Assembly: GCA_027493525.1 (NCBI GenBank)
Contig: JAOSKN010000002.1
Span: 1,271,326 to 1,335,325, forward strand
DNA: 64,000 bases
Reading direction: 5' to 3'
Source: Planctomycetota bacterium
Lineage (GTDB): Bacteria; Planctomycetota; SZUA-567; H5-PLA8
The position numbers were made by a program, and so were the translations under genes. The notes under the pieces were generated by a model, which was not told where the DNA came from, did no database searches, and saw nothing but the letters and a program-made list of their open reading frames with translations. Positions 3,397-36,806 of the stretch are shown in pieces. Within the stretch, counting starts at the first letter, position 1; every line of letters starts with the position of its first letter.

Positions 3397-3410
3397 CCTG
3401 TGATCTGTGA

Positions 3411-4660: not shown

Positions 4661-4663
4661 CCC

Positions 4664-9907: not shown

Positions 9908-10075
9908 CTAGTGTCCTGTAAGAGAAATCCATTGCGCATTTTGGGGTGCTTTTGGCCGTGCTCTTCGTTGCGCTCCGATCAGCGTATCTTCTTGATACGA
10001 TGACTCTTCGCGCGCCTCGATCACGGTCAAAATCCCTCCCAAACCGCATCAACGAATTTCTCTTACAGGACACTA
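9908..10075. mobile_element. MITE-like element, 168 bp, with 21-bp inverted ends CTAGTGTCCTGTAAGAGAAAT
   Basis: The inverted ends at 9908-9928 and 10055-10075 match perfectly. Its core matches repeats near 2490, 9780, 30760 and 62050. Confidence 0.7.
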
Positions 10076-12851: not shown

Positions 12852-12935
12852 GACAAGTAAACAGTAAACAGTAAACAGTAAACAGTAATCAGTAATCAGT
12901 AATCAGTGAACAGTGAACAGTGAACAGTGAACAAT
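12852..12935. repeat. (AACAGTA)n (AATCAGT)n (GAACAGT)n heptamer arrays; reverse complement of CACTGTT
   Basis: Seen in sequence. Confidence 0.9.
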
Positions 12936-13335
12936 TCGGTGTGGCTCGTTTGCTGTTTTCATTTTGCTGTTTGTTTGAGATTTGGTTCTTGTCGTTTGCC
13001 GTTTTGAGTCCTGAAGGGTCGAATGAGAATAGCCCAGCGATTCATCGCTGGGAAAATGGTTGGGTTCGCTGGGCGCGGGAAGCATCAAATCAAAAGAACC
13101 AAAACCCAAACAAATTTCAAACGGCAAGAACAAAATTCCAAACAATCGGCGAACAGATCGGCGCTCGAACTCATGCCGCCCCTGCGGGGCTCAAACGAGT
13201 CAAGGGCCGAGTACCAGGGGCTTACGCCCTGGCTATAGCATGGCGGCCCCGCGGGCCTGAATGGCGGTATGGGAATTCATGCCGCGATTGTTAAGTTAAG
13301 GAAATGTGACTGCAACAGCCGGTGACCGGCCCCGG

Positions 13336-13648
13336 CACACCACTGGGTGGTGTGGCACCTAAGACTCACGACGCGGCGGAGGGGACGCTGGGCGCGGGCG
13401 AGTGGCGACCGGGAACAGAGAACCGGGAACCGGTGACCGAAAACCGTTGTTCGCGCGGGCGGCACACCACTGCGTGGTGTGGCACCCAAAACTCACGACG
13501 CGGCGGAGGGGACGCTGGGCGCGGGCGAGTGGCGACCGGGAACAGAGAACCGGGAACCGGTGACCGAAAACCGTTGTTCGCGCGGGCGGCACACCACTGC
13601 GTGGTGTGGCACCCAAAACTCACGACGCGGCGGAGGGGATGGTTGGCG
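13336..13648. repeat. 117-bp tandem repeat, about 2.7 copies, each copy containing the hairpin box GCACACCACTGCGTGGTGTGGCACC
   Basis: Copies at 13336-13452, 13453-13569, and a partial copy at 13570-13648. The box also occurs at 108-135. Confidence 0.85.
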
Positions 13649-13715
13649 CGGGCGAGCGCAGATGATAGCGCGATATTTAAGCTCATGTTTTTGAGAAAAA
13701 CTTGGATATGAAATA

Positions 13716-13938
13716 GCTACTGTTCACTGTTCACTGTTCACTGTTCACTGTTCACTGTTCACTGTTCACTGTTCACTGTTCACTGTTCACTGTTCACTGT
13801 TCACTGTTCACTGTTCACTGTTCACTGTTCACTGTTCACTGTTCACTGTTCACTGTTCACTGTTCACTGTTCACTGTTCACTGTTCACTGTTCACTGTTC
13901 ACCGTTCACCGTTCACCGTTCACTGTTCACCGTTCACC
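13716..13938. repeat. (CACTGTT)n, about 30 units, with CACCGTT variants
   Basis: Seen in sequence. Confidence 0.9.
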
Positions 13939-14140
13939 GTTCATTGGCTACCTGGCACACGGTATCCGGCAACCGGCAACCAAGCTGAGGCAGACTCTTG
14001 CATGAATCTCGACCGGACCGGCATCGATCTTTCCATCCTGCGCCGGCTGGCGCTGGCGGAGCGGGCTCGGGCGCGGGAACGGGGCCCGGCGGGGCGGACG
14101 CGGGTGCGTTCGGCGGGCGCGTTGGGGGCAGCCGTACGAC

Positions 14141-15345: not shown

Positions 15346-15625
15346 CGGCGGTTGCCGGTTGTTGGGGTGCTTTCTTTTTTGTTTGAGGTGCTGGCGATAG
15401 ATCGAGAATTCCGAAGCAACCGAGAACCGATAACTGGCGGGCGGCGCACCTCTGCGCGGTGTGGCGCCAGGGAGGAGGCGACGCGGTTGTCGGTTGCTGA
15501 AGTGCTTGCTATTTGGATTGGAAGTGCAGGCCACAAGAAAAGAGTTCCAAAGCAGCCGGGAACCGGTGGCCGGCGGGGGGCACGGGGCAGCTTCGCTGAC
15601 CCGTGGCACGGCGGGGTGCGAGACG
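15346..15625. repeat. composite repeat element: GTTGCYG array + AT-rich core (GGTGCTTTCTTTTTTGTTTGAGGTGC...AAGAGTTCCAAAGCAACC) + inverted GAACCGG array + CGGCACGGGGCAGCTTCGCTGACCCGTGGCACGG box
   Basis: Related copies lie at 26327-26565, 27686-27885, 29093-29262, and at 20125-20188 joined to 21662-21790 (split by the IS66 element). Confidence 0.8.
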
Positions 15626-16411: not shown

Positions 16412-16903
16412 ATGGCCAACCCGATCGTCGTTTTCACCACGTCGCAGGGGAGCTTTGAGGTGGAACTGTACGCGGACAAGACGCCGGCGACGGTGCAGAA
16501 CTTCGTCCAGTACGTGAGCGACAAGCACTACGACGGGACGATCTTCCATCGCGTGATCGACGGGTTCATGATCCAGGGCGGCGGTTTCGGGGCGGACGGG
16601 AAGCAGAAGCCGACGCGCGCGCCGATCAAGAACGAGTCGGGGAAGGGCCCGAAGAACTGCAACTACGGGATCGCGATGGCGCGGACGAGCGACCTGAACA
16701 GCGCGACGGCGCAATTCTACATCAACGTGGCCGACAACGCGTTCCTCGACGACGGCCAATACTGCGCCTTCGGGAAGGTGACGCAGGGGACGCAGACGAT
16801 CGACAAGATCAAGAAGGTCGCGGTGGACAAGCCGGGGCGGCTGAGCGAGGCGCAGCCGAAGACGCCGGTGGTGATCGAGTCGGCGACCGTCAAACCGCAG
16901 TAA
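16412..16903 (+). CDS. ppiB: peptidyl-prolyl cis-trans isomerase, cyclophilin type
   Basis: Cyclophilin hallmark motifs are present: FHRVIDGFMIQGGGF and NCNYGIAMAR. Confidence 0.9.
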   Translation: MANPIVVFTTSQGSFEVELYADKTPATVQNFVQYVSDKHYDGTIFHRVIDGFMIQGGGFGADGKQKPTRAPIKNESGKGPKNCNYGIAMARTSDLNSATAQFYINVADNAFLDDGQYCAFGKVTQGTQTIDKIKKVAVDKPGRLSEAQPKTPVVIESATVKPQ

Positions 16904-17095
16904 TCTGTAATCTGTGATCTGTGATCTGTGATCTGTGATCTGTGATCTGTGAGCTGTGGTCTGTGATCTGTGGTCTGTGATCTGTGGTCTGTGAGCTGTG
17001 GTCTGCAATACGTAACGGCGAACGGTAACTGCTGACGCCGCTGGCTAGTGAGGGATTTTTTACAGATTACAGATTACAGATTACAGATCACAGTC
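16903..17095. repeat. (CTGTGAT / CTGTGGT)n, then inverted (CAGATTA)n
   Basis: Seen in sequence. Confidence 0.85.
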
Positions 17096-20188: not shown

Positions 20189-21661
20189 GTAACCGTTCAG
20201 TTCCCTACCGCTGCAAGGAATGCCGGAGCCTTTGCGCCGGTGCGGTGAGCAGCCAAGGCCCTGCGCAGATAGTCAAGGATGGGACGCTTTTGCAAACGCA
20301 AGGTCTGCACGGTGGTCAAGATCCGTTCGGTGAAACGGCAGCCTGCGGTACTGTGATTGCCGAAGCTCCCTTTGCGCCACAGCACCGCCGGACGCAACAT
20401 CCGTTCGGCGTGGTTGTTGGTCGGTTCGATGCCTTCGACGGCCGCGAAGGTCCACAGCGCGTCGTAGACTTTCAGCACGCGTCTGCAAAAGCGCTTGGTT
20501 TTGGGGTCCGCGCCCCTGCTTCCGAGCCGGAGCGTTCTCTGGAAACGCAGGCGTATCGGTTGCAACCGCACGTGTAGCGCGGCACGGTCGCAACGCCGGT
20601 CTTTGAAATCCTTCCAGGCCGCAAAGACCGCTCGGGCGGTCTTGCGGCCCGCTCGGCCGAGCGGTTGTGTCGCGGATCCCAGGTCGATCAACTTCTGAAA
20701 ATCGCGCTTGAGGTGCGCCCAGCAAATTTGCCGCTGCCGCGGCGGCAGGTGCGCGTAGGCGCCCCAGCGGTCGGAGCCGAGGATGCCGCAACACGCCCCC
20801 AGCAACGCCTTCAGGCCGTCCTTACCCCGGTGGGCGTGAATTTGAAAGGCTGCGACGCTCCGCGTGGCTGCCACCCACAGCCAACACAGCTTGCCACCCT
20901 TCGCCCAGCCGGTTTCATCCACGTTTTTGAAAGCCGCCCCACGCACGGCCGCCAGCGCCTGCGCGTGAGGCCCTTCCAGCGCGCCGCTCATCTCGTGTTC
21001 GAGCTTGATCACCGTGCCCAGGGATAGCGGGACCCCAAAGACGGTCTCGGCGAGTTCCTGGACGTTGCGCTTGCTGGCGTGGCCACGCCCACTCAGATAC
21101 GACAACGCCGCCGCCAGGTTGGGACCCAGCGCATGGGCTTGAATCTCCGGCGGAATCTCCGCGCGGGTGCGGCAGCCGCAGCACGGACAGGTGCGTGCGT
21201 GCCCCTGGTATTCGGTGATTTCGGCCGGCTGCGGCGGCAACTCCGCGACTTGATGCCAAGTCGGAGGCGGATCGTGTGGCCCTGGCCGCTTAGACAAGGG
21301 GGCTTGGCATTCCGCACATACGTGCGGCACGTAATGGACCACGTGCGTGACCCGTTCGGGCGGCAAACGTACACGGTGATGGCCCGGATGTCCGGGTTGT
21401 CCGCCGGGTTTGCGGCCGCTCGGCTTCTTGGCGGCTGGAGGCTTCTGCCAGGGCGCATCGGACGACGGTGGTTTGGAAGAGTTCGAGGAATTCTGGTTCA
21501 AGCGCTCGGAAAGCCGCTCCAGCTTGGCTTCCAATTCTTCGATCCGCGCCAGGAGCACCGCGCAATTCGGACAAGCCGGGTTGGGTTTAAGCTCGCGCAC
21601 ACATACAGTATCGGATGGCGTGACGTAAAAAATGAGCCTTCATAGGGGACTGAACGGTTAC
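20189..21661. mobile_element. IS66-family insertion sequence with a single transposase gene, about 20-bp inverted ends, and 8-bp TSD CTTTTCTG
   Basis: Left inverted end is GTAACCGTTCAGTTCCCTAC; the right end reverse-complements to GTAACCGTTCAGTCCCCTATG. The direct repeat CTTTTCTG sits at 20181-20188 and 21662-21669. Confidence 0.8.
20197..21600 (-). CDS. IS66 family transposase
   Basis: The N-terminal CPNC zinc finger, leucine zipper and NSSNSSKPPSSD motif are characteristic of IS66 transposases (TnpC). The protein is 467 aa. Confidence 0.85.
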   Translation of the reverse strand: MRELKPNPACPNCAVLLARIEELEAKLERLSERLNQNSSNSSKPPSSDAPWQKPPAAKKPSGRKPGGQPGHPGHHRVRLPPERVTHVVHYVPHVCAECQAPLSKRPGPHDPPPTWHQVAELPPQPAEITEYQGHARTCPCCGCRTRAEIPPEIQAHALGPNLAAALSYLSGRGHASKRNVQELAETVFGVPLSLGTVIKLEHEMSGALEGPHAQALAAVRGAAFKNVDETGWAKGGKLCWLWVAATRSVAAFQIHAHRGKDGLKALLGACCGILGSDRWGAYAHLPPRQRQICWAHLKRDFQKLIDLGSATQPLGRAGRKTARAVFAAWKDFKDRRCDRAALHVRLQPIRLRFQRTLRLGSRGADPKTKRFCRRVLKVYDALWTFAAVEGIEPTNNHAERMLRPAVLWRKGSFGNHSTAGCRFTERILTTVQTLRLQKRPILDYLRRALAAHRTGAKAPAFLAAVGN

Positions 21662-21868
21662 CTTTTCTGTTTGAGGGGCAGGCAACAGGAAGAGAGTTCC
21701 ATAGCAACCGGGAACTGACAACCGAGAACTGGCAACTGGCGGGCGGCACGGGGCAGCTTCGCTGACCCGTGGTACGGAGGGGAAAAAAACCGCCCAGGCC
21801 GGGGGCTGGCGGCCTGGGCGGGGGCGGCCTTCGGACTCCTCCTGGGGGAGAGGAGCGGAAGGGCCGGG

Positions 21869-26313: not shown

Positions 26314-26326
26314 GCGGCGGCCGGGG

Positions 26327-26565
26327 GAGCGACGCGGTTGCTGGTTGTCGGTTGTCGGTTGTCGGTTGCCGGTTGCTGGTTGCTGGTTGCTGAGGTGCTT
26401 TCTATTTTGGTTCGAGGTGGAGGCGGTACATCAAGAGGTTCGAAGGAACCGGAAACCAAGACTTGAGAACCGACACCTGACACCCGGCACCCAGGAACCA
26501 GGAACCAGGAACCGGGAACCGGTGACCGGCAACTGGCAACCAGCAACTGGCAACTGATTTCGGCT
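26327..26565. repeat. composite GTTGCYG/GAACCGG repeat element
   Basis: Seen in sequence. Confidence 0.8.
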
Positions 26566-27626: not shown

Positions 27627-27685
27627 GCCCCGCGCGGCCCATGGCGATGCTATGCATTCGGCGCGGCGAATTCAAGACGGGCGGG

Positions 27686-27885
27686 GGCGGGATGGTTGCC
27701 GGTTGCCGGTTGTCGGTTGCTGGTTGCTGGTTGCCGGTTGCTGAGGTGCTTTATTTTTTGTTTGGTGGTGCAGGCAACACAAAAAGAGTTCCAAAGCAAC
27801 CGGCAACCGGCAACCGAGAACCGGCAACCGCTGAGCGGCACGGGGCGGCTTCGCTGACCCGTGGCACGGCGGGGTGGGCGGGATG
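27686..27885. repeat. composite GTTGCYG/GAACCGG repeat element with CGGCACGGGGCGGCTTCGCTGACCCGTGGCACGG box
   Basis: Seen in sequence. Confidence 0.8.
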
Positions 27886-29007: not shown

Positions 29008-29092
29008 TGGGAAGCTCCTTTACCTGTCCGGGTTCGGGTGACAAGGGGGCGGTTGTATAGAGTTGCGCGGAGGGAGGCAACTGAAGTTCCGG

Positions 29093-29262
29093 GTGGCGGT
29101 TGCCGGTTGCCGGTTGCTGGTTGCCGGTTGCTGAGGTGCGTTCTTTTTTGTTGGAGGTGCAGGCAACAAGAAAAGAGTTCCAAAGCAACCGCGAACCGGC
29201 AACCGAGAACCGGGAACCGGCGGTCGGCACGGGGCAGCTTCGCTGACCCGTGGCACGCGTGC
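29093..29262. repeat. composite GTTGCYG/GAACCGG repeat element with conserved box
   Basis: Seen in sequence. Confidence 0.8.
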
Positions 29263-29346
29263 CCCTCCTCGAAGAGGAGGGGAAAGTGCGCACAGCGAAG
29301 TTAACTACCTTAGGCAGAACTGTTTTGCACTCACGCATTGGGAAAC

Positions 29347-29434
29347 TGGAGGAGGACAGAGGACTCGAACCCCACTCCCGAAGGAGCGATCCGTTTTCGA
29401 GACGGTCCCGGCACGCCTGTCCGGTTTATCCTCC
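29347..29434 (-). tRNA. tRNA-Ser(CGA)
   Basis: Manual cloverleaf: GGAGGAT/GTCCTCC acceptor stem, long variable arm, CCA encoded. Confidence 0.8.
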
Positions 29435-29446
29435 CGGTGCGGGCGC

Positions 29447-30022
29447 CTATCCGACGCCCTGCATCCGCTGGCCTAGTACGAACGGCGCCCAACGCGGCTC
29501 GTGATGGACGATTCGCGGCGGGAGCTGTTCGGGGCGCGCGGGCCGGCTGCGCAGCGCCATGCCCGCCGTCTCCGGCGTGCGGTCGCGCTTGCGCCGGTTG
29601 CACGGCACGCAGGCGGCGACGCAGTTGGCCCAGACTGAGCAGCCCCCCTGTGCGCGCGGCAGGACGTGGTCCACGGTCAGCTTGTGCGCCGGCAGATGCG
29701 CGCCGCAGTACTGGCACGTGTAGCCGTCCCGGCGGAGCACGTTGTACCGGGAGAACGCCGGCTTGCGCTCGGGCACGCGGTCGTAGAAGGTCAGCACGAT
29801 CACCTCGGGCGCGAGGAGGTCGCACGTCGCCGTGCGCACCCGCGGCGAATCGGGCGCGCAGGCCACGCGGGTCCAGGACGCGAAATCGTGCGTGGAGTAG
29901 TCCTCCAGCCGCACGGCGCGCGCGTGGCCGTCCACGAGCTTGCAGAGCGCGCGGAGCACCGACGTCACGTCGATCGGCGTCCAGTGCTTGTTGAGGACCA
30001 GCGTCGGCCGTTCCAGTACCAC
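29447..30022 (-). CDS. HNH endonuclease
   Basis: The HNH motif is present: YTCQYCGAHLPAHKLTVDHVLPRAQGG...NCVAACVPCNRRK. Confidence 0.8.
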   Translation of the reverse strand: MVLERPTLVLNKHWTPIDVTSVLRALCKLVDGHARAVRLEDYSTHDFASWTRVACAPDSPRVRTATCDLLAPEVIVLTFYDRVPERKPAFSRYNVLRRDGYTCQYCGAHLPAHKLTVDHVLPRAQGGCSVWANCVAACVPCNRRKRDRTPETAGMALRSRPARPEQLPPRIVHHEPRWAPFVLGQRMQGVG

Positions 30023-30044
30023 CAGCGTGTCCTTTCCGTTGCGT

Positions 30045-30118
30045 TGGCAAGGCGCCGAGGAGTCGAACCCCGCCGGGCGGTTTTGGAGACCGCTCAGGTC
30101 CCCGGACCATCGCGCCTT
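30045..30118 (-). tRNA. tRNA-Trp(CCA)
   Basis: Manual cloverleaf; anticodon loop CTCCAAA. Confidence 0.8.
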
Positions 30119-30138
30119 GTCGTATCCGCCTCTCGAAC

Positions 30139-30213
30139 TGGCTCGCCCGCCGGGAGTCGCACCCGGACCTCGACCTTCGCAAAGTCGTGTGCGGTCTGTT
30201 ACACCACGGGCGG
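30139..30213 (-). tRNA. tRNA-Arg(GCG) candidate, with C1xA72 mismatch
   Basis: A full cloverleaf with anticodon loop TTGCGAA. It is a paralog of the tRNA at 36302..36377. Confidence 0.55.
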
Positions 30214-30225
30214 ATTGGGCTCTCC

Positions 30226-30300
30226 TGGCGCCTCCGCGAGGACTCGAACCCCGATCGGCCGGTTAGAAGCCGGCTGCTCTGTCCCTTGAGCTACGAAGGC
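30226..30300 (-). tRNA. tRNA-Arg(TCT)
   Basis: Manual cloverleaf; anticodon loop CTTCTAA. Confidence 0.8.
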
Positions 30301-30309
30301 GCTGCGGAT

Positions 30310-30383
30310 TGGCGCTCCCGGGAGGATTTACACCCCCAACTCCCGGTTCGAAGCCGGGTATGATTCTGTTTCACCACGGGAGT
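30310..30383 (-). tRNA. tRNA-Arg(TCG) candidate, with A1xC72 mismatch
   Basis: Cloverleaf with anticodon loop CTTCGAA. Confidence 0.6.
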
Positions 30384-30422
30384 CCGAATTTCATGCTCAT
30401 TCTTCAACCTTAATTCCACATG

Positions 30423-30496
30423 ATGGTGTCCCGGGAGGGACTTGCCCCCCCAACTTCCTGACCCTGAATCGGGCGCCTCTGCTTGGGCTACCGGGA
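30423..30496 (-). tRNA. atypical tRNA-like gene (anticodon CAG, short variable arm, T-loop GGCAAGT, 3-bp D stem)
   Basis: The acceptor GTCCCGG/CCGGGAC pairs perfectly and CCA is encoded. The anticodon stem carries a C/A mismatch, and there is no long variable arm, so it is not a canonical tRNA-Leu. Confidence 0.4.
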
Positions 30497-30597
30497 CACA
30501 ACGCCTCGCCTCCATGCGGGGGCCGGAGAGCCGCGCGCCGGACGGCGCGCGGTTCTGCGAACTCCGCGTTCCCGCGCGCATGGCCTCGCGCGCAACA

Positions 30598-30683
30598 TGG
30601 TCGGGGCGGGGAGAGTCGAACTCCCATGGGCGAACCCGCCGGCCTCTCGAACCGGTGCGTATGCCTAGTTCCGCCACGTCCCG
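30598..30683 (-). tRNA. tRNA-Leu(GAG) (type II), with one acceptor mismatch
   Basis: 86 nt, with a long variable arm and A73. The anticodon loop is TCGAGAG. Confidence 0.6.
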
Positions 30684-30690
30684 AATGTCA

Positions 30691-30930
30691 TGGTGTCGCG
30701 GGCAGGACTTGCACCTGCACTAAGTACCGCGCCGCGAAAGTTCCTGACCCACTGCTGGAGCCTTTTGTCCCGGCTCTTCGTTGCGCCTTGGTCTCAGATC
30801 TTCGTCCCGATATGCTCCCTCGGCGCGCCTCGACCCGGGACAAAATGCCCGGCGCATTGGGCCAGCTACTTTCGCGGCGCGGTACCAAGCCGGGTTTGAG
30901 CCGGCCGCCTCTGCATTGGGCTACCGCGAC
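30691..30930 (-). pseudogene. tRNA-like gene (paralog of 30423..30496, anticodon CAA) split by a 162-bp insertion
   Basis: The 3' half at 30691-30723 carries the T-arm, CCGCGAC and CCA. The 5' half at 30886-30930 reads GTCGCGGTAGCCCAATGCAGAGGCGGCCGGCTCAAACCCGGC. The halves are separated by the element at 30724..30885. Confidence 0.5.
30724..30885. mobile_element. 162-bp MITE-like insertion with perfect 18-bp inverted ends GTACCGCGCCGCGAAAGT
   Basis: The inverted ends sit at 30724-30741 and 30868-30885. The core matches the roughly 105-bp unit (TTTTGNCCNGG ... CCGGGACAAAA) seen near 2490, 9780, 9940 and 62050. Confidence 0.65.
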
Positions 30931-30952
30931 ACGATTCAAGTTCCATGCAATG

Positions 30953-31036
30953 AGGAGCGCGGAGGAGTCGAACCCCATGCCTCGCGGCACGCGCGGTCTT
31001 CCAAACCGTCTCGAGCACCGGCTCGAATCACACTCC
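30953..31036 (-). tRNA. tRNA-Ser(GGA) (type II, CCA not encoded)
   Basis: GGAGTGT acceptor stem, anticodon loop TTGGAAG, and a long variable arm. Confidence 0.65.
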
Positions 31037-31065
31037 GGATCAAGTTTTCCTTTCACGTCTCAAAT

Positions 31066-31152
31066 TGGAGGAGGGCGGAGGACTTGAACCTCATGCCCGC
31101 AGGCACGCCCTGTGTAGCAGACAGGCCCGGAAACCCATCCGGGTCACCCTCC
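31066..31152 (-). tRNA. tRNA-Ser(GCT) (type II)
   Basis: 87 nt; anticodon loop CTGCTAC; CCA encoded. Confidence 0.75.
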
Positions 31153-31164
31153 GCACCTAGAAAA

Positions 31165-31253
31165 TGGTCGCCCCGGAGGGAGTCGAACCCTCACGTCCTA
31201 AACGGACACGAGCTTCTGAGGCTCGCGCGTCTTCCAGATTCCGCCACAGGGCG
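31165..31253 (-). tRNA. tRNA-Leu(CAG) (type II)
   Basis: 89 nt; anticodon loop CTCAGAA; A73; CCA encoded. Confidence 0.8.
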
Positions 31254-31346
31254 AAGGAATTGGGACCGCGGAGGCGGCGCGCTCCAGGGGTGGAGCCGCC
31301 TGGGAGAGGGCGCGCACCGCGCTCCGCAATCCGGTTCCTTATTCAG

Positions 31347-32654
31347 CTACAGGAGCTTGACCACACGGTCGGCCAAGCCCTTCTCACCCAACATCACGGT
31401 CAGGTTGGCCTTCTGCGTGACCTTCTCCAGGACCTCCAGCTCGCGCAGGCGCATCAGCGTCGGGTTGTGCTCCAGCACCTTCGCCGTGTTGGCCTGCATG
31501 CGCATGGCCGCGGTCTCCTCGCGGCGCGTGATCAGAGCCGCCTCGGCCGCCTTCTTGGCCTCGGTGACCTTGTTCAACAGGTCCTTCATCTCGCCCGGCA
31601 GGATCACGTCACGGATGCCGAGCGCGATCACTTCCAGGCCGAACGCCGTGGCGCGGTCCTTCAACTGCCCTTCCAGCTCGCGCGCCACTTCGTCCTTGGC
31701 CGCCAGCAGCGCATCGAGATCGCGCGTGCCGATCGCTGCCCGCAGGCTCAACTGCGCCTCGCGGTACAGCGCCTGGCGGTAGTCGTCGGTGACCGTCGCC
31801 GCCTTCACGGCGTCGGCCACGCGGAAGTTCACGACCGCGTTGAGGCGCAGCGTCACCTTGTCGGCGGTCATGATCTCCTGGCCCTGGATGTCCACGACCT
31901 GCTCGCGCAGGTCCACCGTGAACAGCCGCACCTGGCCCACGTCCTTCCAGAACGCGTGCTTTCCGGCGCCCAGCGTGGCCTGGTGCGCGCCGTCCTTGAA
32001 GAAGACGGCGGCGTGGCCCGGCTCGACCGCCAGCCACTCGAGCGCCTCCTGCGCGCCGGCGGCCTTCTGGATGGCCGCCAGTTCGCCGTGCTCGAAGCGT
32101 CCCTTGCCCGCGTCCACGACCTCGACCTTGACGTCGTGGTACTTGGTCGGGATCAGGTGCAGGCCGCGCCCGAGCACGCGCTCGAAGCGCCCGTCGCGCC
32201 AGACGAGCGCGCGCTCGCGGTCCTTCAGGTCCACGGCGCGGGCCTCGCCGTCGAAGGCGCCCGTGGCGAGCACTTCCGCCAGGTCGCGGTGCGCGAAGAC
32301 CGCGGCGCGCAGGTCCACGACGTCCACGCGGACGTCGCGGAAGACCGTCCAGAGGACGTAGCGGCCTGGCTTCAGGACGCGCTCCAGGCGCCCGTCGAGC
32401 CACACGATGCCGCGTTCGTGCGCCTTCAGCTCGACTACGCGGGCGTCCTTGCCCAGGCGGCCGCTCTTCACGATCACGTCCAACTGGGCGTGCTCGAACC
32501 AGGCCTCGCGCACGTTGACCTTCTCGACGCGGACCCGGAAGAACGGGTCGGCAAAGCGGTGCTTGCCCGGCTGCAGCAGCCCCTCGAACTGGCCCTCGCG
32601 GAAGAGCAGGCCGCGCTCGTGCGGCAGGATCTTGAACGTACGCATCAGCAGCAT
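31347..32654 (-). CDS. SPFH/band-7 (stomatin/slipin-like) domain protein
   Basis: The ORF is protein-like from MLLMRTFKILPHERG onward. The SPFH core is recognisable (VVNFRVADAVKAATVTDDYRQAL), followed by a coiled-coil C-terminus. Confidence 0.8.
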   Translation of the reverse strand: MLLMRTFKILPHERGLLFREGQFEGLLQPGKHRFADPFFRVRVEKVNVREAWFEHAQLDVIVKSGRLGKDARVVELKAHERGIVWLDGRLERVLKPGRYVLWTVFRDVRVDVVDLRAAVFAHRDLAEVLATGAFDGEARAVDLKDRERALVWRDGRFERVLGRGLHLIPTKYHDVKVEVVDAGKGRFEHGELAAIQKAAGAQEALEWLAVEPGHAAVFFKDGAHQATLGAGKHAFWKDVGQVRLFTVDLREQVVDIQGQEIMTADKVTLRLNAVVNFRVADAVKAATVTDDYRQALYREAQLSLRAAIGTRDLDALLAAKDEVARELEGQLKDRATAFGLEVIALGIRDVILPGEMKDLLNKVTEAKKAAEAALITRREETAAMRMQANTAKVLEHNPTLMRLRELEVLEKVTQKANLTVMLGEKGLADRVVKLL

Positions 32655-33050
32655 GCTGCACCTCGCCTTCTCGGGTGGCGGCCACAGGGCCGCCTTCAAC
32701 CCGCTGCCCTCTTGGTTCGTGCCCCGGTCGGGCCAGGGCAGAGCTTGTTCGCGACGCCGGCGGCGAAACGACCTTTGGGAGGCGGACCGCCGGTCCGCCA
32801 CACCTTCGGCACGGAGCACCGCTTGAGCCCCGCGCTACTCCCGGATTCGAGCCCCGGCTTGCGCGCGCGAACCCTACGGGCTTCACGCGCGCGCCCCGGA
32901 ACCGTCTCCCGGTTTGGCGCAGGACGGTATCCGCGCGCTTCAGGGCGCCGTCGCGTGCTGCCGAATTCCGAGCTGGAACGAGCCTCGAAATCCGGCGGGC
33001 CGAGCGCGACGACCGCCCCCCTCGGGCCTCACGGTTACGCTTTTGCAAGC

Positions 33051-33122
33051 GTGTTGGCGCAGGATTCGAACCTGCAACTCACGGATTAAAAATCCGCTGC
33101 TCTTCCCTTGAGCTAGCCATGG
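33051..33122 (-). tRNA. tRNA-Lys(TTT)-like; acceptor 5' strand poorly paired (possible pseudogene)
   Basis: The D-arm (TAGCTCAAGGGAAGAGC), anticodon loop (TTTTTAA) and T-arm (GCAGGTTCGAATCCTGC) are canonical, but only 4 bp of the acceptor stem pair. Confidence 0.5.
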
Positions 33123-33205
33123 TCGGATGGCGGGAGTCGAACCCGCGTTCCCCTTGCGAGGAACCAGTTCCAAGCTGGCGCGCCTTCCCCGGCGCGTCAT
33201 CCGTG
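33120..33205 (-). tRNA. atypical tRNA-like gene (Pro-TGG-like anticodon hairpin CTTGGAA, extended variable region)
   Basis: A T-arm (GCGGGTTCGACTCCCGC) and a CCA end are present. The acceptor has one mismatch and the structure is irregular. Confidence 0.35.
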
Positions 33206-33214
33206 GTGCGCGGC

Positions 33215-33287
33215 AAGCCGGGCGAGATTCGAACTCGCGTCCTCCGGGGCAACCGCCCCGGCGCTCTGCCACTGAGCTACCCGCCTC
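33215..33287 (-). tRNA. tRNA-like gene, identity undetermined (6-nt anticodon loop, acceptor mismatch)
   Basis: The D-arm (TAGCTCAGTGGCAGAGC) and T-arm (GCGAGTTCGAATCTCGC) are canonical. The anticodon hairpin CCGGGG CGGTTG CCCCGG is irregular. Confidence 0.4.
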
Positions 33288-33452
33288 CGCGCGCGACTGA
33301 CATTTCGCCTTCGTCAGATCCCATGTCCGGAACACGCGCGGGCGATCACGGTGTGAGCCCGCACGCGCCGCTGGCCCGGCGTCGGTCAGTATTCGGTTTT
33401 GTCATCGAACCACCCGGTCTCCTTGTTTTTCCCGGTCTGCGATACTGCCTCA

Positions 33453-33526
33453 TGGCGCCCGCTGGAGGAGTCGAGCCTCCGTCTCCACCGCGTCGAGGTG
33501 GCGCTCTCCCGTTGAGCTAAGCGGGC
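33453..33526 (-). tRNA. tRNA-Val(GAC)
   Basis: Perfect acceptor GCCCGCT/AGCGGGC; anticodon loop TCGACGC; CCA encoded. Confidence 0.75.
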
Positions 33527-33531
33527 CGAGC

Positions 33532-33605
33532 TGGTAGCCGCTGAAGGAGTCGAACCTTCGTCTCCAGCGTGTGAAGCTGGCGCCCTGCCCTTAGGCGAAG
33601 CGGCT
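33532..33605 (-). tRNA. tRNA-Val(CAC)
   Basis: Acceptor AGCCGCT/AGCGGCT; anticodon loop TTCACAC; CCA encoded. Confidence 0.75.
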
Positions 33606-33606
33606 A

Positions 33607-33692
33607 TGGGGGCCTCGACGGGATTTGAACCCGCACCACGCGAGCGAGCGGCCTTTGGGAAACGCGCTTCCCAGTCACGGCGGTTTGCGGCC
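33607..33692 (-). tRNA. tRNA-like element (T-arm + acceptor + CCA), probable pseudogene
   Basis: The 3' end reads GCGGGTTCAAATCCCGT CGAGGCC C CCA. The 5' partner GGCCGCA leaves 2 mismatches, and no clean anticodon arm is visible. Confidence 0.3.
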
Positions 33693-33845
33693 AGGTCCCG
33701 TACGGTTACCCGTACGGGCGTGACACGGTGCATCCTCAACCCTTGCCGCGCCCCACACCCGATCAGGCCCCACGGGCCTTCGCGATCGGTAGCAGGTCTC
33801 GCGTGCCCTGTTACGGGGCCGGTTCTACGTTTTCCGGCAGGCTGC

Positions 33846-34015
33846 CTTGTGAGCGCGTCCTAAAACGCCTCGCGATCGTCTTGGGGCGGCGGGCCGCGCG
33901 ATGCTTCGTTGGCCTGCTCGCCGTATGCTCGTTCCGATACGGCTTGCGCGGCCGCCTCGCCTCGCTTGCCCGGCGCTCCCAAGCCGCCTCGCGATCCGAT
34001 TTCAGGACGCACTCA
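33846..34015. repeat. about 165-bp dispersed repeat (copy 2 of 2)
   Basis: Matches 23826..23995. Confidence 0.7.
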
Positions 34016-34046
34016 TTGCCTCACGAGGCCCAGCGTTATTCGGTTT

Positions 34047-34122
34047 TGGTAGCGAGCCGTGGAATCGGACCACGCTTGCAGGCTTATGAGACCCGCCAGA
34101 CCCCCAGGCCTTGCCACTCGCT
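34047..34122 (-). tRNA. tRNA-Met(CAT)-like (elongator Met or Ile-lysidine type)
   Basis: Acceptor AGCGAGT/GCTCGCT; anticodon hairpin CGGGT CTCATAA GCCTG; T-loop TCCGATT; CCA encoded. Confidence 0.55.
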
Positions 34123-34181
34123 ATCGAACGCTTTTCCTCCTTTGCTCGGTCCTCAGTCCTCGGTGCTCCGTCCTGCCGTAA

Positions 34182-34265
34182 TGGTGGGGTCGTAAGGAAT
34201 CGAACCTCCCAGCCTCGCGGCGCAGGGGTTACGGCCCTGCCCTGATCCCACTCAGCAGCGACCCC
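34182..34265 (-). tRNA. tRNA-Tyr(GTA) (type II)
   Basis: Perfect acceptor GGGGTCG/CGACCCC; anticodon loop CCGTAAC; long variable arm; CCA encoded. Confidence 0.75.
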
Positions 34266-34352
34266 GATCCAAATACGGAATGTCGAATTCGGAATGCGGA
34301 ATAATGAAAGAATCCGCAGGCCATTTTCGTTTCATTCCGGAGCCTTAATTCA

Positions 34353-34430
34353 TGGTCGGGATGGAGGGATTCGAACCCCCGATCTCCTGGCCCCCAGCCA
34401 GGCGCGCTGGCCATGCTGCGCTACATCCCG
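34353..34430 (-). tRNA. tRNA-Pro(GGG)
   Basis: Acceptor CGGGATG/CATCCCG; anticodon loop CTGGGGG; CCA encoded. Confidence 0.8.
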
Positions 34431-34450
34431 ATGCGGCCCTCCTTCGAGTT

Positions 34451-34528
34451 TGGTCGGGGTGGCAGGATTCGAACCTGCGACCTCTGCAATCCGAATGCAG
34501 CGCGCTCGCCAAACTGCGCTACACCCCG
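34451..34528 (-). tRNA. tRNA-Pro(CGG)
   Basis: Acceptor CGGGGTG/CACCCCG; anticodon loop TTCGGAT; CCA encoded. Confidence 0.8.
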
Positions 34529-34631
34529 GGGAACGGCTGTGATCTGTAATCTGTAATCTGAGGCTCCACCTTTCATTCTGGTACCGACTCGTACCTTATT
34601 CACTGTTCACAGATCACAGACCACAGATCTC

Positions 34632-34707
34632 TTGGCGGGGCCCCCGGGAATCGAACCCGGTTCTCCTGCGCTTCAGGCAGGCGCAATGACCACACCTGCT
34701 CAAGCCC
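34632..34707 (-). tRNA. tRNA-Phe(GAA)
   Basis: Anticodon loop CTGAAGC; CCA encoded. Confidence 0.75.
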
Positions 34708-34709
34708 CA

Positions 34710-34786
34710 CTGGCGCCCGCGGCCGGAGTCGCACCGGCTTACTCCACCGTGACAAGGTGGCGGCTCCACTGTTTCGCCTTCGCGGG
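34710..34786 (-). tRNA. tRNA-Asp(GTC)
   Basis: Acceptor GCCCGCG/CGCGGGC; anticodon loop TTGTCAC; CCA encoded. Confidence 0.8.
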
Positions 34787-34803
34787 CCCTGCTCCTTTGC
34801 GTA

Positions 34804-34877
34804 TGGAGGCCGCGGAGGGCTTCGCACCCCCGTGGACGGCTTTGCAGGCCGCCGCCTTGCTCCTCGGCCACGCGGCC
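34804..34877 (-). tRNA. tRNA-Cys(GCA)
   Basis: Acceptor GGCCGCG/CGCGGCC; anticodon loop CTGCAAA; CCA encoded. Confidence 0.8.
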
Positions 34878-34892
34878 GAATCTCCGCCGGCA

Positions 34893-34967
34893 TGGGGTGA
34901 CTTGCGGGAGTTGAACCCGCTCTGCGAGCCTCACAAGCTCGCGTGCGCCCGGCACACTCAAGCCACC
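34893..34967 (-). tRNA. tRNA-His(GTG) with encoded G-1
   Basis: Anticodon loop TTGTGAG. An extra 5' G pairs with C73, which is a His identity element. Confidence 0.8.
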
Positions 34968-34977
34968 ATCCAAGTCC

Positions 34978-35051
34978 TGGTCGGACGGGGAGGAATCGAA
35001 CCTCCGCCGGCTGCTCATCAGACAGCCGTGCTCCCGTTACACCACCGTCCG
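34978..35051 (-). tRNA. tRNA-Ile(GAT)
   Basis: Acceptor CGGACGG/CCGTCCG; anticodon loop CTGATGA; CCA encoded. Confidence 0.8.
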
Positions 35052-35056
35052 CCCGT

Positions 35057-35611
35057 TCACTGCTTCTCGGCGCCCTGCGCCAGCCACTCTTCGCGCAGCA
35101 GGCCCATGACCAGCGTGTCCTGGTACCGGCCTTCGAAGTAGGCGTTCTGGCGCAGCACGCCTTCCTTGATAAAGCCGGCCTTCTCGTAGGCCCGGATCCC
35201 GCCGCGATTGCAGGCGAAGACGTGCAGGTAGATGCGGTTCAGGTTCAGCGTTTCGAACCCGTATCCGACGATCAACCGGGTCGCTTCGGTCCCGTAGCCT
35301 TTGTTCCATTCCTCTTTCGCACCGATGTAGATGCCGAACTCGGCGCGGCGGTCCTTTTCGAGCCCCGGGCGGAGCCCGGTTCCGCCGAGGAAACGGTCGT
35401 TCTCCTTCAAGGCGATCGCGAGGACGGTCTGGCGCTCGTCGACCAGGACCTTGTCCAGCCACTGCTCTTCGGCTTCCTTCGTCAGCGGCCGATGCCAGTT
35501 CAGTGTTCGCGCGACTTCGCCGTCGTTGAGGTACGTCAGGATCTGCGGCACGTCCTCCTTGCTCAGTGGCCGCAGGTAGATCCGCTCGCCGATCAGGAAT
35601 GCGTTGTGCAT
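35057..35611 (-). CDS. GNAT family N-acetyltransferase (RimJ/RimL-like)
   Basis: Begins MHNAFLIGERIYLRPLSKEDV. An acetyl-CoA-binding motif is present (RNAYFEGRYQDTLVMGLL). The gene is embedded in the tRNA array. Confidence 0.8.
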   Translation of the reverse strand: MHNAFLIGERIYLRPLSKEDVPQILTYLNDGEVARTLNWHRPLTKEAEEQWLDKVLVDERQTVLAIALKENDRFLGGTGLRPGLEKDRRAEFGIYIGAKEEWNKGYGTEATRLIVGYGFETLNLNRIYLHVFACNRGGIRAYEKAGFIKEGVLRQNAYFEGRYQDTLVMGLLREEWLAQGAEKQ

Positions 35612-35628
35612 GGCCCACTTTCCTTTCC

Positions 35629-35702
35629 TGGTTGGCCCGCGAGGATTCGAACCTCGGCCTGCGGAGCCAAAGTCCGCCGTCCTGCCTCTAGACGACGGGC
35701 CA
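35629..35702 (-). tRNA. tRNA-Gln(TTG)
   Basis: U1:A72; anticodon loop CTTTGGC; CCA encoded. Confidence 0.8.
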
Positions 35703-35709
35703 TTCGATC

Positions 35710-35785
35710 TGGCGTCCCCGGCGGGATTCGAACCCGCGTCGCCAGGCTGAGAACCTGGCATCCTCAACCGCTAGACGACAGGGAC
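35710..35785 (-). tRNA. tRNA-Glu(CTC)
   Basis: Anticodon loop TTCTCAG; CCA encoded. Confidence 0.8.
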
Positions 35786-35795
35786 ACTGCTGCAT

Positions 35796-35870
35796 TGGAA
35801 CGGCCGGCGGGAATCGAACCCGCCCTTCGACGTTGGAAGCGTCGCGTGCGCCCGCTCACACTTCGACCGC
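35796..35870 (-). tRNA. tRNA-Gly(TCC)
   Basis: Anticodon loop CTTCCAA; CCA encoded. Confidence 0.7.
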
Positions 35871-35910
35871 CTGCGCTTTGATCCTCCCAAGAACCTCGCA
35901 CCTGCCGTCT

Positions 35911-35984
35911 TGGCTGCGGGGCAAGGATTCGAACCTCGCTTTCCTGGTTCAGAGCCAGGCGTCCTGCCGCTAGACGACCCCGCA
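35911..35984 (-). tRNA. tRNA-Gln(CTG)
   Basis: U1:A72; anticodon loop CTCTGAA; CCA encoded. Confidence 0.8.
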
Positions 35985-35988
35985 ACGT

Positions 35989-36064
35989 TGGTGCGTCCGG
36001 TGGGGCTCGAACCCACACGCACCCGGGTAAGAACCGGGCTCTCTGCCACTCGAGTTCCAGACGC
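35989..36064 (-). tRNA. tRNA-Lys(CTT)
   Basis: Anticodon loop TTCTTAC; CCA encoded. Confidence 0.8.
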
Positions 36065-36074
36065 GACCTGTACG

Positions 36075-36147
36075 TGCCTCCGGGAGGATTCGAACCTCCA
36101 CCCCTCGGCTTAAAAGGCCGGTATGCTGCCGTTGACACCACGGAGGC
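36075..36147 (-). tRNA. tRNA-Lys(TTT) (CCA not encoded)
   Basis: Perfect acceptor GCCTCCG/CGGAGGC; anticodon loop CTTTTAA. Confidence 0.75.
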
Positions 36148-36202
36148 GCACGTTTGATTGCTTTTCGTTTCACGCTCGCCTCCAAGTCCCGCTCCTCCCG
36201 TT

Positions 36203-36276
36203 TGGCAGCCCCACGGGGATTTGAACCCCGACCTCCGGATTGAAACTCCGGCATCCTCCCCTTAGACGATGGAGCC
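36203..36276 (-). tRNA. tRNA-Glu(TTC)
   Basis: Anticodon loop GTTTCAA; CCA encoded. Confidence 0.75.
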
Positions 36277-36301
36277 GCTTTGCGTTTCATGCTCCCTGCA
36301 T

Positions 36302-36377
36302 TGGTGGAGCGGCCGGGACTCGCACCCGGAACTCGACCGTGCGAAAGTCGTGTGTTGCTGGTTAGCACCACCGCCCC
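36302..36377 (-). tRNA. tRNA-Ala(CGC) with G3:U70
   Basis: Acceptor GGGGCGG/CCGCTCC carries the G3:U70 Ala identity pair. Anticodon loop TTCGCAC. Confidence 0.7.
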
Positions 36378-36396
36378 ACGCTGCGTACGCCTCCTT

Positions 36397-36470
36397 TGGC
36401 TCCGGCGGGAGGATTCGAACCTCCGTCTCCTGATTAACAGTCAGGGATGTTGCCCTTACACCACACCGAA
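36397..36470 (-). tRNA. tRNA-Asn(GTT)
   Basis: Anticodon loop CTGTTAA; CCA encoded. Confidence 0.8.
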
Positions 36471-36476
36471 CCGCGT

Positions 36477-36550
36477 TGGTGGAGCGTGCGGGACTTGAAC
36501 CCGCATCCCGAGGCTGCCGGCCTCGCATCCTTCCGTTGAACGAACGCCCC
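36477..36550 (-). tRNA. tRNA-Ala(GGC) with G3:U70
   Basis: Acceptor GGGGCGT/ACGCTCC; anticodon loop CCGGCAG. Confidence 0.75.
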
Positions 36551-36567
36551 ACGGGTACTTCACAAGC

Positions 36568-36638
36568 TGGAGCCGCAGGCAGGAGTCGAACCCGCCAGGC
36601 CTCTTTACGAAAGAGGCGCGTGCCCGGCACACCGCGGC
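36568..36638 (-). tRNA. tRNA-Thr(CGT)
   Basis: Anticodon loop TTCGTAA; short D arm; CCA encoded. Confidence 0.7.
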
Positions 36639-36649
36639 AGAGCACGAAC

Positions 36650-36723
36650 TGGAGCCGCCCGAGGGAATCGACCCCCCCTGCTCGCCACCAGGGAGCCGTG
36701 CGAACCATCGGCGCCGGAGCGGC
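36650..36723 (-). tRNA. tRNA-Thr(GGT)
   Basis: Anticodon loop CTGGTGG; CCA encoded. Confidence 0.65.
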
Positions 36724-36733
36724 CCGTCGAAAC

Positions 36734-36806
36734 TGGAGCGGGGGCGGGAATCGAACCCGCGTCTCGAGCTCGGCATGCTCGCGCTCTCCCGTTGAGCTAC
36801 ACCCGC
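36734..36806 (-). tRNA. tRNA-Gly(GCC)
   Basis: D-arm TAGCTCAACGGGAGAGC; anticodon loop ATGCCGA; CCA encoded. Confidence 0.75.

Follow-up and report, generated by a model that had tools for sequence, protein, structure and literature searches.

The window analysed here is a 64-kb stretch of a Planctomycetota bacterium chromosome (contig JAOSKN010000002.1). It carries a long tRNA array on its minus strand, and two genes of this array, which we call E1 (30424-30497) and E2 (30691-30930), have leucine anticodons without the native long variable arm of ordinary bacterial tRNA-Leu. Judged from their sequences, E1 and E2 are genuine tRNA-Leu genes of the short-variable-loop form. They are most probably class-I leucine-tRNA genes, a type widespread in phages and in horizontally transferred long tRNA arrays, and E2 has a dispersed palindromic repeat inserted into its variable loop.

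Sequence and structure of E1 and E2

Both genes lie on the minus strand, as does the whole surrounding tRNA array. E1, the class-I tRNA-Leu(CAG) gene, reads GUCCCGG UA GCC CAAGCAGA GGC G CCCGA UUCAGGG UCAGG AAGUU GGGGG GGCAAGU CCCUC CCGGGAC A CCA, with its CCA encoded at 30424-30426. E2, the tRNA-Leu(CAA) gene, is 240 nt long including an insert of 163 nt, and reads GUCGCGG UA GCC CAAUGCAGA GGC G GCCGG CUCAAAC CCGGC UU(163 nt)UUAGU GCAGG UGCAAGU CCUGC CCGCGAC A CCA. The original prediction had described perfect 7-bp acceptor stems, U8 and A9, 3-bp D stems, U33, a CCA end and a T-loop lacking TTC, and all of these can be read directly from the two sequences, which also have A73 in common. The shared T-loop is (G/U)GCAAGU, without UUC, and neither gene has a long variable arm of its own. 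In E1 the D-loop is CAAGCAGA, the variable loop is AAGUU (5 nt) and the T-loop is GGCAAGU; 19 of 20 stem pairs are kept, together with A73 and CCA. In E2 all stems are perfectly paired, including the D arm GCC CAAUGCAGA GGC and the anticodon arm GCCGG CUCAAAC CCGGC (anticodon CAA). Two extra upstream bases (GU) could pair with A73-C74, and this extension is not kept across the family described below.

The element with inverted ends that was predicted to split one of the genes is the insert of E2, at 30724-30886, and it is located in the variable loop. The 5' part of E2 (30887-30930) contains the acceptor 5' strand, U8 A9, the D arm, the anticodon arm and the first UU of the variable loop, as seen in the sequence, in a local match to the covariance model R2 and in the minimum free energy cloverleaf. 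The 3' part (30691-30723) contains the variable-loop UUAGU, the T arm (GCAGG UGCAAGU CCUGC), the acceptor 3' strand, A73 and CCA, as seen in the sequence, in a local match to the model R1 at 30694-30738 and by ARAGORN on the spliced sequence. The insert itself was recognised by its fold and by homology to four other copies in the window.

The Rfam tRNA model (RF00005; gathering score 29 bits) matched E1 at 36.8 bits (E = 1.5e-5) with permissive filters and on the minus strand only, and ARAGORN at relaxed thresholds called it Leu(CAG). Over the interrupted 240-nt E2, Rfam gave no match spanning the gene in either default or permissive mode; when the insert was removed in silico, default ARAGORN called a tRNA-Leu(CAA) of 75 nt. 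Scoring with covariance models on both strands thus supports the minus-strand genes (36.8 bits for E1 with Rfam and 63.1 bits with R2). The suggestion that the opposite strand might encode tRNA-Gln found no support, since neither Rfam nor ARAGORN has a plus-strand match over E1 or E2, and the minus strand carries the CCA ends as well as the array as a whole. At other places the array does have true tRNA-Gln(CUG/UUG) genes (ARAGORN). The fold energy of E1 is no better than that of shuffled sequences (z = -1.0), so the case for E1 is carried by homology and covariation. The 243-nt region of E2 folds into a complete cloverleaf with a single long hairpin leaving the variable region (-142.2 kcal/mol, z = -8.6), and no shuffle reached an equal energy.

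Family membership and covariation

The D-arm motif U8 A9 GCC-CAA(n)GCAGA-GGC, with its 3-bp stem, is matched exactly by E1 and E2 and was the search pattern by which related genes were retrieved. A scan of the genome collection found it in tRNA arrays of 4 Elusimicrobia metagenome-assembled genomes (MAGs), whose members are 72-76 nt long and have the same D arm, A73, a 5-nt variable loop and the anticodon UAA, UAG or CAG. A looser scan matched at least 120 phage contigs in IMG/VR. The hits were parsed into cloverleaf segments, and those with at least 15 of 17 stem pairs were taken as well formed, which gave 132 members from phage contigs and bacterial tRNA arrays. Their anticodons are UAA (64), UAG (25), CAA (19), GAG (13), CAG (7), AAG (3) and GUU (1), so that 131 of 132 are of Leu type. 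A73 is present in 130 of the 132, the variable loop is 5 nt long in 124 and ends in AGU in 106, and the length without CCA is 72-75 nt.

E1 and E2 have the features that define this family. Their anticodons, CAG and CAA, are both among the six Leu anticodons. Members have a short variable loop (4-6 nt, usually NNAGU); that of E1 is AAGUU, with a GUU end found also in 15 of the 132 members, and the UU(insert)UUAGU of E2 reconstructs to UUAGU, identical to the loop of the family member L006. A canonical class-II tRNA-Leu would have a native variable stem-loop of more than 10 nt; E1 has 5 nt in its place, and the hairpin of E2 is a copy of the dispersed repeat. The earlier statement that genes with CAG and CAA anticodons and no long variable arm are not canonical class-II tRNA-Leu is thereby borne out.

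The cloverleaf of the family is strongly supported by covariation. In an alignment of 42 sequences, 98.8% of the cloverleaf cells were paired and changes on both sides occurred at 18 of 20 pairs. The covariation score was 0.846, compared with a mean of 0.217 after column shuffling (0 of 500 shuffles reached the observed value) and a maximum of 0.148 when the partners were slid. The family covariance model R2, which was built without E1 and E2, gave E1 as the top match of the window with 63.1 bits (the next tRNA scored 52.1) and found the 5' part of E2 as a local match at 30870-30930 with 45.3 bits. The model R1 gave family members 67-91 bits, and hardly any other tRNA scored above 63 bits.

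E1 and E2 are only 68.5% identical and each is nearer to relatives with the same anticodon elsewhere, which indicates that they are members of one family and not recent duplicates; of the predicted paralogy, the common family stands and a recent duplication does not. The nearest relative of E1 is a phage tRNA-Leu(CAG) (L076, 76.7% identity). Insert-free E2 matches the family consensus and is 80% identical to uninterrupted array genes. A metagenome scan with the E2 anticodon arm found uninterrupted class-I Leu(CAA) genes, one with the same anticodon arm and the same T stem as E2 (L144) and others that lie in arrays (L142/L145 and L146). Homologues are thus found in Elusimicrobia arrays, in phage contigs and as uninterrupted E2-like genes. 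The family D loop, CAAyGGCAGA, resembles those of ordinary class-II tRNA-Leu: the host's own class-II tRNA-Leu at 54044-54130 has a similar D loop, GAAUUGGCAGA, and the class-II Leu(CAA) gene of a related array (L015, 11240-11325) has the D loop GAAUGCAGA and an anticodon arm one base off that of E2. Other class-II Leu genes available for comparison lie at 30598-30683 and 31165-31253.

Some sequences found by the scans were set aside. Five matches to the D-arm motif (L002, L005, L008, L011 and L012) are due to chance, and L001 is a degenerate lone tRNA-like fragment. Two actinobacterial loci, L003 (310-418, plus strand) and L004 (about 6700-6850), have the exact D-arm motif GGUAGCCCAAGGCAGAGGCG followed by a diverging continuation, and they look like YrlA-type Y RNA modules rather than family members; L003 matches the Y RNA-like YrlA family weakly (39.5 bits; gathering score 69). 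The YrlA tRNA-like module may be related to the class-I tRNA-Leu type. Two phage family members, L090 (about 20-110, minus strand) and L051, have insertions in or beside the anticodon loop. The insertion of L090 is about 35 nt, too short for a group I intron, and that of L051 is longer.

The insert of E2

The insert is an imperfect palindrome with the 5' end GGUACCGCGCCGCGAAAG and the 3' end CUUUCGCGGCGCGGUAC, has inverted ends of about 18 bp and is flanked by UU..UU. Its excision restores UUAGU, the usual variable loop of the family. Including the insert, the window contains five copies of this repeat, and the other four are intergenic. They lie on the minus strand at 2486-2618 (found by nhmmer), 9769-9891 (blastn and nhmmer), 9928-10060 (nhmmer) and 62046-62166 (blastn and nhmmer), each confirmed by alignment and fold; the copy at 9769-9891 abuts that at 9928-10060, with a CTAG common to both. 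The insert matched the other copies with E values of 3.5e-9 to 3.8e-5 in single-sequence nhmmer searches and down to 1e-25 with a profile. Each of the five copies is non-coding and folds into one long hairpin with paired ends, and all have a common centre of about 100 nt, made up of an 11-bp stem (UUUUGaCCgug/cacGGuCAAAA), an asymmetric internal loop that is also conserved, and a GCGC stem.

The copies are flanked by CTAG, CTAAG or CTTAG, and in E2 by TT..TT(AG). As CTAG is itself palindromic, a target duplication looks the same as a repeat end. Within E2, TTAG occurs in the variable loop only, so a preference for YTAG-like targets would explain the position of the insert without selection. 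The insert is probably a secondary, lineage-specific insertion of the dispersed repeat. Rfam searched at E up to 10 returned for it no intron or ribozyme family and only noise (mir-2071, 20 bits), and another copy of the repeat matched no Rfam family. The terminal repeat GGTACCGCGCCGCGAAAG and the core CAACGAAGAGCNNGGNCAAAAG each had 0 matches in IMG/VR, and the repeat profile found nothing in loci L001-L136, including the related Planctomycetota loci L013, L015 and L016.

The repeat in the window resembles dispersed bacterial repeats such as ERIC/IRU, REPIN and elements like miniature inverted-repeat transposable elements (MITEs) in being a non-coding imperfect palindrome of about 130-170 nt with multiple intergenic copies, each forming one long hairpin and having short CTAG-like brackets. 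Unlike a classical MITE, in which the terminal inverted repeats are conserved, it has a conserved centre and variable terminal arms. No link between the repeat and a transposase was found, and it has no matching Rfam family.

An alternative tRNA elbow

In the family, a D-loop with GG accompanies a UUC T-loop in 118 members and a GG-less D-loop accompanies a UGC T-loop in 10, and the two mixed combinations account for 4 (1 and 3; Fisher p = 1e-11). The UGC T-loop co-varies with loss of GG in the D-loop, and this suggests a coherent alternative elbow rather than decay. The T-loops of E1 and E2 look like such an elbow and would not in themselves be evidence of decay. In this elbow G18 appears to be lost or replaced together with the change to G55. 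The G54 of E1 is unusual even among tRNAs with the UGC elbow. The earlier suggestion of decaying pseudogenes therefore does not hold as far as it was based on the missing TTC, but it may still apply to E1, through its stem mismatch and G54, and to E2, through its interruption.

This array has the UGC T-loop with a GG-less D-loop also in its tRNAs for Arg, Ala, Cys and Asp, and other arrays have it in tRNAs for Gln, Met, Thr and Asn. Five tRNAs of this array, Arg(GCG) at 30139-30213, Arg(UCG) at 30310-30383, Asp(GUC) at 34714-34787, Cys(GCA) at 34804-34877 and Ala(CGC) at 36302-36377, all on the minus strand, have UGC or UGU T-loops, and most of them have a D-loop of the AACAGA type with no GG at the usual G18G19 position. 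Several tRNAs of the array have mismatches at 1:72. As a speculation, the elbow variant, which recurs in many types of tRNA from phages and arrays, might serve escape from host enzymes or defences directed at tRNAs. The co-variation of D-loop and T-loop offers clean natural data for studies of the tRNA elbow interaction.

Predicted function and alternative explanations

The likeness of the D loop to class-II tRNA-Leu, the annotation of phage relatives and the leucylation of a short tRNA-Leu in Streptomyces coelicolor lead us to read E1 and E2 as leucine acceptors without a long arm. With a phage family member as query, 482 GenBank phage records matched, and among the matches listed most are annotated as tRNA-Leu. 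The hosts of these phages include Pseudomonas, cyanobacteria, Enterococcus, Streptomyces, Myxococcus, Bacillus and Erwinia, and T5-like phages of Salmonella and Escherichia also matched. T5 tRNAL2 (GenBank AJ604531) is 77 nt long and is annotated as tRNA-Leu reading UUA, and its sequence is of class I; the record states that swapping the anticodon to CUA gave an effective amber suppressor. The notion of a novel class of suppressor or decoy was accordingly abandoned, as the annotations of hundreds of phage genomes, T5 among them, already list this family as tRNA-Leu. S. coelicolor has a type-I tRNA-Leu(CAA) alongside its class-II tRNA-Leu, and the only leucyl-tRNA synthetase (LeuRS) of that organism leucylates it, which shows that one bacterial LeuRS can charge both types (Fan et al. 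2019, PMC6614811). In that work C74 rather than A73 was important, and the leucine-specific domain of LeuRS was required (PMC6614811).

E1 and E2 would be transcribed with the array and then trimmed to the encoded CCA. LeuRS, which ignores the anticodon, would recognise A73 and the Leu-type D arm (3-bp stem, ..GCAGA loop), and by analogy with T5 tRNAL2 and the S. coelicolor tRNA both may be charged with leucine in this host. As supernumerary isoacceptors, E1 would read CUG and E2 would read UUG. E2 later gained the 163-nt repeat copy, which probably inserted at the TTAG within an original UUAGU loop, and its predicted transcript is a 240-nt cloverleaf with a hairpin of roughly 75 bp as 'variable arm'.

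Several observations weigh against this function. The anticodon stem of E1 has a C29.A41 mismatch, its T-loop has G54 instead of U54, and E1 was missed by Rfam with default filters (gathering mode) and by ARAGORN at default thresholds, all of which may mean that it is decaying. E1 is also redundant, given a class-II tRNA-Leu(CAG) in the array. The S. coelicolor type-I tRNA-Leu is reportedly not charged by the LeuRS of E. coli (PMC6614811), and charging therefore depends on which LeuRS the host has. Long tRNA arrays (L-arrays) can be nearly silent (PMC8421152). As to the insertion, the outer arms of the repeat differ between copies, though they still pair, and are common to no more than two of them, which leaves the transposition mechanism and the target-site preference conjectural. 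The case also shows that genes of this kind escape gene finders run with default settings: the defaults of ARAGORN and the default filters of Rfam overlooked both E1 and E2.

It is possible, though we consider it unlikely, that both genes are non-functional relics in a cryptic, horizontally acquired array, E1 having decayed by point mutations and E2 having been killed by the repeat. The mismatch and G54 of E1, its low general tRNA score (36.8 bits) and its absence from the default ARAGORN output would fit such a history, as would the interruption of E2 by a dispersed repeat. Other members of the array also look damaged, including a truncated Lys-like gene at 33055-33119 and several genes with 1:72 mismatches, and L-arrays are supernumerary and often poorly expressed (PMC8421152). 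However, the stems of E2 are perfectly paired and insert-free E2 fits the family consensus, and E1, with 19 of 20 pairs, A73 and CCA, is the best family match in the window. The GG-less D-loop and the UGC T-loop co-vary and are not damage. In addition, the synteny of the array around a slipin gene is conserved among Planctomycetota MAGs even though identity between their slipins is only about 61-66%, an indication that the array has been retained for a long time. Leucine-accepting tRNA genes of the phage type therefore remain our preferred reading of the pair.

With respect to the present state of E2, we lean slightly towards a gene that is impaired or inactive; a still active E2 is a doubtful prospect, and one processed by a nuclease is improbable. 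There is a small chance that E2 is a still functional natural tRNA-Leu with a mature length of about 240 nt and a repeat-derived variable arm, or that it is cut in the hairpin to give a two-piece tRNA. For E2 to work despite the insert, the giant arm would have to be tolerated by LeuRS, EF-Tu and the ribosome, and this seems rather improbable to us. The position of the insert is favourable, since the variable loop was the only one of the D, variable and T loops that tolerated a large insertion in experiments on tRNA-Tyr (PMC5397188). A 183-nt tRNA-Tyr with a Spinach aptamer of about 100 nt in this loop was stable, charged and active in translation in E. coli, and expression was likewise stable for variable-loop fusions made with tRNA-Leu and with class-I tRNAs (PMC5397188). 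All stems of E2 are intact, and the hairpin leaves the body like a class-II arm, with the helix directly after nucleotide 44 and 4 unpaired nt before the T stem. E2 is also the only CAA isoacceptor of the array. On the other hand, the insertion is a single occurrence: no orthologue with the insert was found and the homologues found are uninterrupted. A TTAG target preference could explain its position without selection, the insert of 163 nt exceeds the aptamer that was tested, and the 19-bp perfect helix together with a hairpin of roughly 75 bp would make a plausible substrate for RNase III. If E2 does function, it would surpass all other natural elongator tRNAs in size by a wide margin and would be the natural equivalent of the engineered fusion tRNAs; in either case it is a natural test of how much extra RNA the variable loop of a tRNA can bear.

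It is very unlikely that E1 and E2 are missense or recoding tRNAs charged with another amino acid, like allo-tRNAs or tRNAs with shifted anticodons. Acidobacterial allo-tRNAs with odd cloverleaves bear Leu and other anticodons and insert Ser or Ala (PMC5389517). Sec-like or allo-like tRNA-Ser genes are present in the same array, and the D arm of E1 and E2 resembles that of the tRNA-Cys of such arrays. However, E1 and E2 have a normal 7/5 arrangement of acceptor and T stem (7 bp and 5 bp), and this, together with the lack of a long arm, rules out allo-tRNAs of the 8/4 or 9/3 form. They have neither the long variable arm recognised by seryl-tRNA synthetase nor the G3:U70 recognised by alanyl-tRNA synthetase (both have C3-G70), and the U73 element of tRNA-Cys is absent. 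As expected of true Leu acceptors, 131 of the 132 family members have one of the six Leu anticodons together with A73, and the T5 member is annotated as tRNA-Leu reading UUA.

The least credible explanation is that the insert of E2 is an intron, of group I or another kind, whose splicing would leave a normal tRNA. Group I introns are classically found in bacterial tRNA-Leu genes, the phage relatives L090 and L051 have insertions in or near the anticodon loop, and the related array in L013 is followed by a gene for an RtcB ligase; but the insert is in the variable loop and not in the anticodon loop, a search at E up to 10 matched it to no intron or ribozyme family, its sequence is a simple palindrome with homology to the four intergenic copies, and typical group I introns are longer than its 163 nt.

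The tRNA array and its surroundings

E1 and E2 sit in the Leu/Ser block of the L-array, which extends from 29347 to 36806 on the minus strand and contains 37 tRNA or tRNA-like genes for all 20 amino acids. This count combines the calls of ARAGORN and Rfam with E1 and E2; ARAGORN alone found 31 tRNA genes in the same interval, and Rfam in permissive mode added more. The density is about 5 tRNA genes per kb, even with the 1.5-kb slipin gene included. It exceeds the definition of an array as at least 20 tRNA genes on the same strand at 2 or more per kb, as given in PMC4758250. CCA is encoded in most of the array tRNAs printed. A canonical class-II tRNA-Leu(GAG) lies between E1 and E2 at 30598-30683 (minus strand; ARAGORN, and Rfam at 36.1 bits), and E2 is the sole CAA isoacceptor. 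A scan of the array for promoters and terminators was uninformative, with 0 promoter-like sites and fewer terminator-like sites than expected from shuffles.

The slipin gene inside the array (31347-32819; Pfam Band_7) encodes a protein 100% identical to one from a Planctomycetota MAG, and has homologues with 61-66% identity on two other contigs, L015 and L013, where they are likewise flanked by syntenic tRNA arrays; one of the two contigs is annotated as Planctomycetota and the other is unannotated. The array is followed by an HNH endonuclease gene in L015 (12501-13091) and by an RtcB RNA ligase gene in L013 (13878-15386), and neither gene was seen beside the array in this window. The flanks of the array here contain ordinary chromosomal genes and an IS66 transposase. 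The IS66-family transposase gene is at 20197-21600 (minus strand), and an open reading frame with a phage depolymerase C-terminal domain is at 5565-7424 (plus strand); the two hint at mobile or phage-derived DNA upstream of the array.

Other members of the array are also atypical. The tRNA-Ser genes CGA, GGA and GCU at 29347-29434, 30953-31037 and 31069-31153 (minus strand) score better with the tRNA-Sec model than with the tRNA model, at 39-43 bits and below the gathering score of 47. Their D stem is Sec-like, with 6 bp and a loop of 4 nt, and their acceptor stem exceeds 7 bp; in this they resemble the 8/4 tRNA-Ser and allo-tRNA forms of PMC5389517. The tRNA-Pro(UGG) at 33121-33204 (minus strand, 84 nt) has an apparent long variable arm of class-II type, which is unusual for Pro. 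The gene at 33212-33286 (minus strand) has an irregular anticodon loop, for which ARAGORN reports 'gt' and no assignment. The Lys(UUU)-like remnant at 33055-33119 (minus strand) has a truncated acceptor stem and covers only positions 4-67 of the Rfam model; it is probably a pseudogene. In Elusimicrobia arrays a 293-nt sequence resembling bacterial RNase P RNA (92.6 bits, just below the gathering score of 100) lies between tRNA-Val and tRNA-Asn (L009, 2113-2405; L010, 1-243; both minus strand). No RNase P RNA was found in the array of the window.

Elsewhere in the window, the intergenic regions are filled with 7-nt tandem repeats, for example (TGTTCAC)n, (GTGATCT)n and (GGTTGCY)n paired with (GGAACCR)n, in regions that include 3358-3600, 4354-4690, 7397-7506, 12857-12961, 13666-13984, 16858-17056, 26320-26552, 27681-27876 and 29071-29265. 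A recurring intergenic module of about 110 nt, ending in GGCACGGGGCAGCTTCGCTGACCCGTGGCACGG, has units near 15350-15620, 21637-21784, 26364-26474, 27715-27876 and 29118-29265. At 13333-13713 a unit of 127 nt is repeated three times in tandem (98% and 62% identity to the first) and adjoins a long (TGTTCAC)n tract. A match to the Acido-Lenti-1 RNA (49.6 bits; gathering score 37) is found in this Planctomycetota genome at 13007-13052 (minus strand).

Comparison with known systems

L-arrays are described as long, supernumerary and horizontally spread tRNA operons with a patchy distribution that includes Planctomycetes (PMC8421152; PMC4758250). Homing endonucleases are frequently found close by, and the arrays can stay silent until translation comes under stress (PMC8421152). 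The array in the window is similar to these published arrays (PMC4758250; Santamaria-Gomez et al. 2021, PMC8421152) in its dozens of dense, same-strand, supernumerary tRNA genes, and the related locus L015 also has an HNH endonuclease neighbour. Unlike them, it encloses a slipin gene. The parts of these accounts that were searched make no mention of class-I tRNA-Leu, the UGC T-loop or repeat insertions.

The type-I tRNA-Leu(CAA) of S. coelicolor is, like E1 and E2, bacterial, has a short variable loop and exists alongside class-II tRNA-Leu (PMC6614811), a likeness of type. It is encoded by a single chromosomal gene, whereas E1 and E2 are members of an array. Engineered variable-loop fusions, such as the V-Spinach tRNA (PMC5397188) and aptamer-tagged allo-tRNAs (PMC7590224), resemble E2 in carrying a large hairpin in the variable loop of an otherwise intact tRNA. 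They are designed, carry inserts of about 100 nt or less and are active in translation; E2 is natural and its repeat-derived insert is 163 nt long.

The closest known relatives are the short tRNA-Leu of phages, for example T5 tRNAL2 and those of Pseudomonas phage ZC03, cyanophages P-SSM7 and P-RSM6 and Enterococcus phage EFDG1. No published account specific to the phage class-I tRNA-Leu or to the G55 elbow variant was found in a partial coverage of the literature, which is not proof of absence. Two things are unusual in the present case, a repeat that interrupts the variable loop of a tRNA gene intact in all other respects, and the co-varying elbow. Neither is categorically new, and the importance of the case is modest, that of an oddity rather than a new kind of molecule. 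Like the phage tRNAs, E1 and E2 have a 72-77-nt cloverleaf (without the insert in E2) with a 5-nt variable loop, a D stem of 3 bp closing a (C/G)AA..GGCAGA-type loop, Leu anticodons and A73; the CCA, encoded in E1 and E2, is often encoded in the phage genes too. Unlike them, E1 and E2 are chromosomal and lie in a bacterial L-array, E1 has G54 and a stem mismatch, and E2 has a 163-nt repeat in its variable loop; in contrast to most of them, both use the minority elbow, with no GG in the D-loop and G55 in the T-loop. E1 and E2 belong to an already known, little discussed kind, the phage-type class-I tRNA-Leu, and its presence in chromosomal L-arrays of Planctomycetota and Elusimicrobia links these arrays to the phage tRNA pool.

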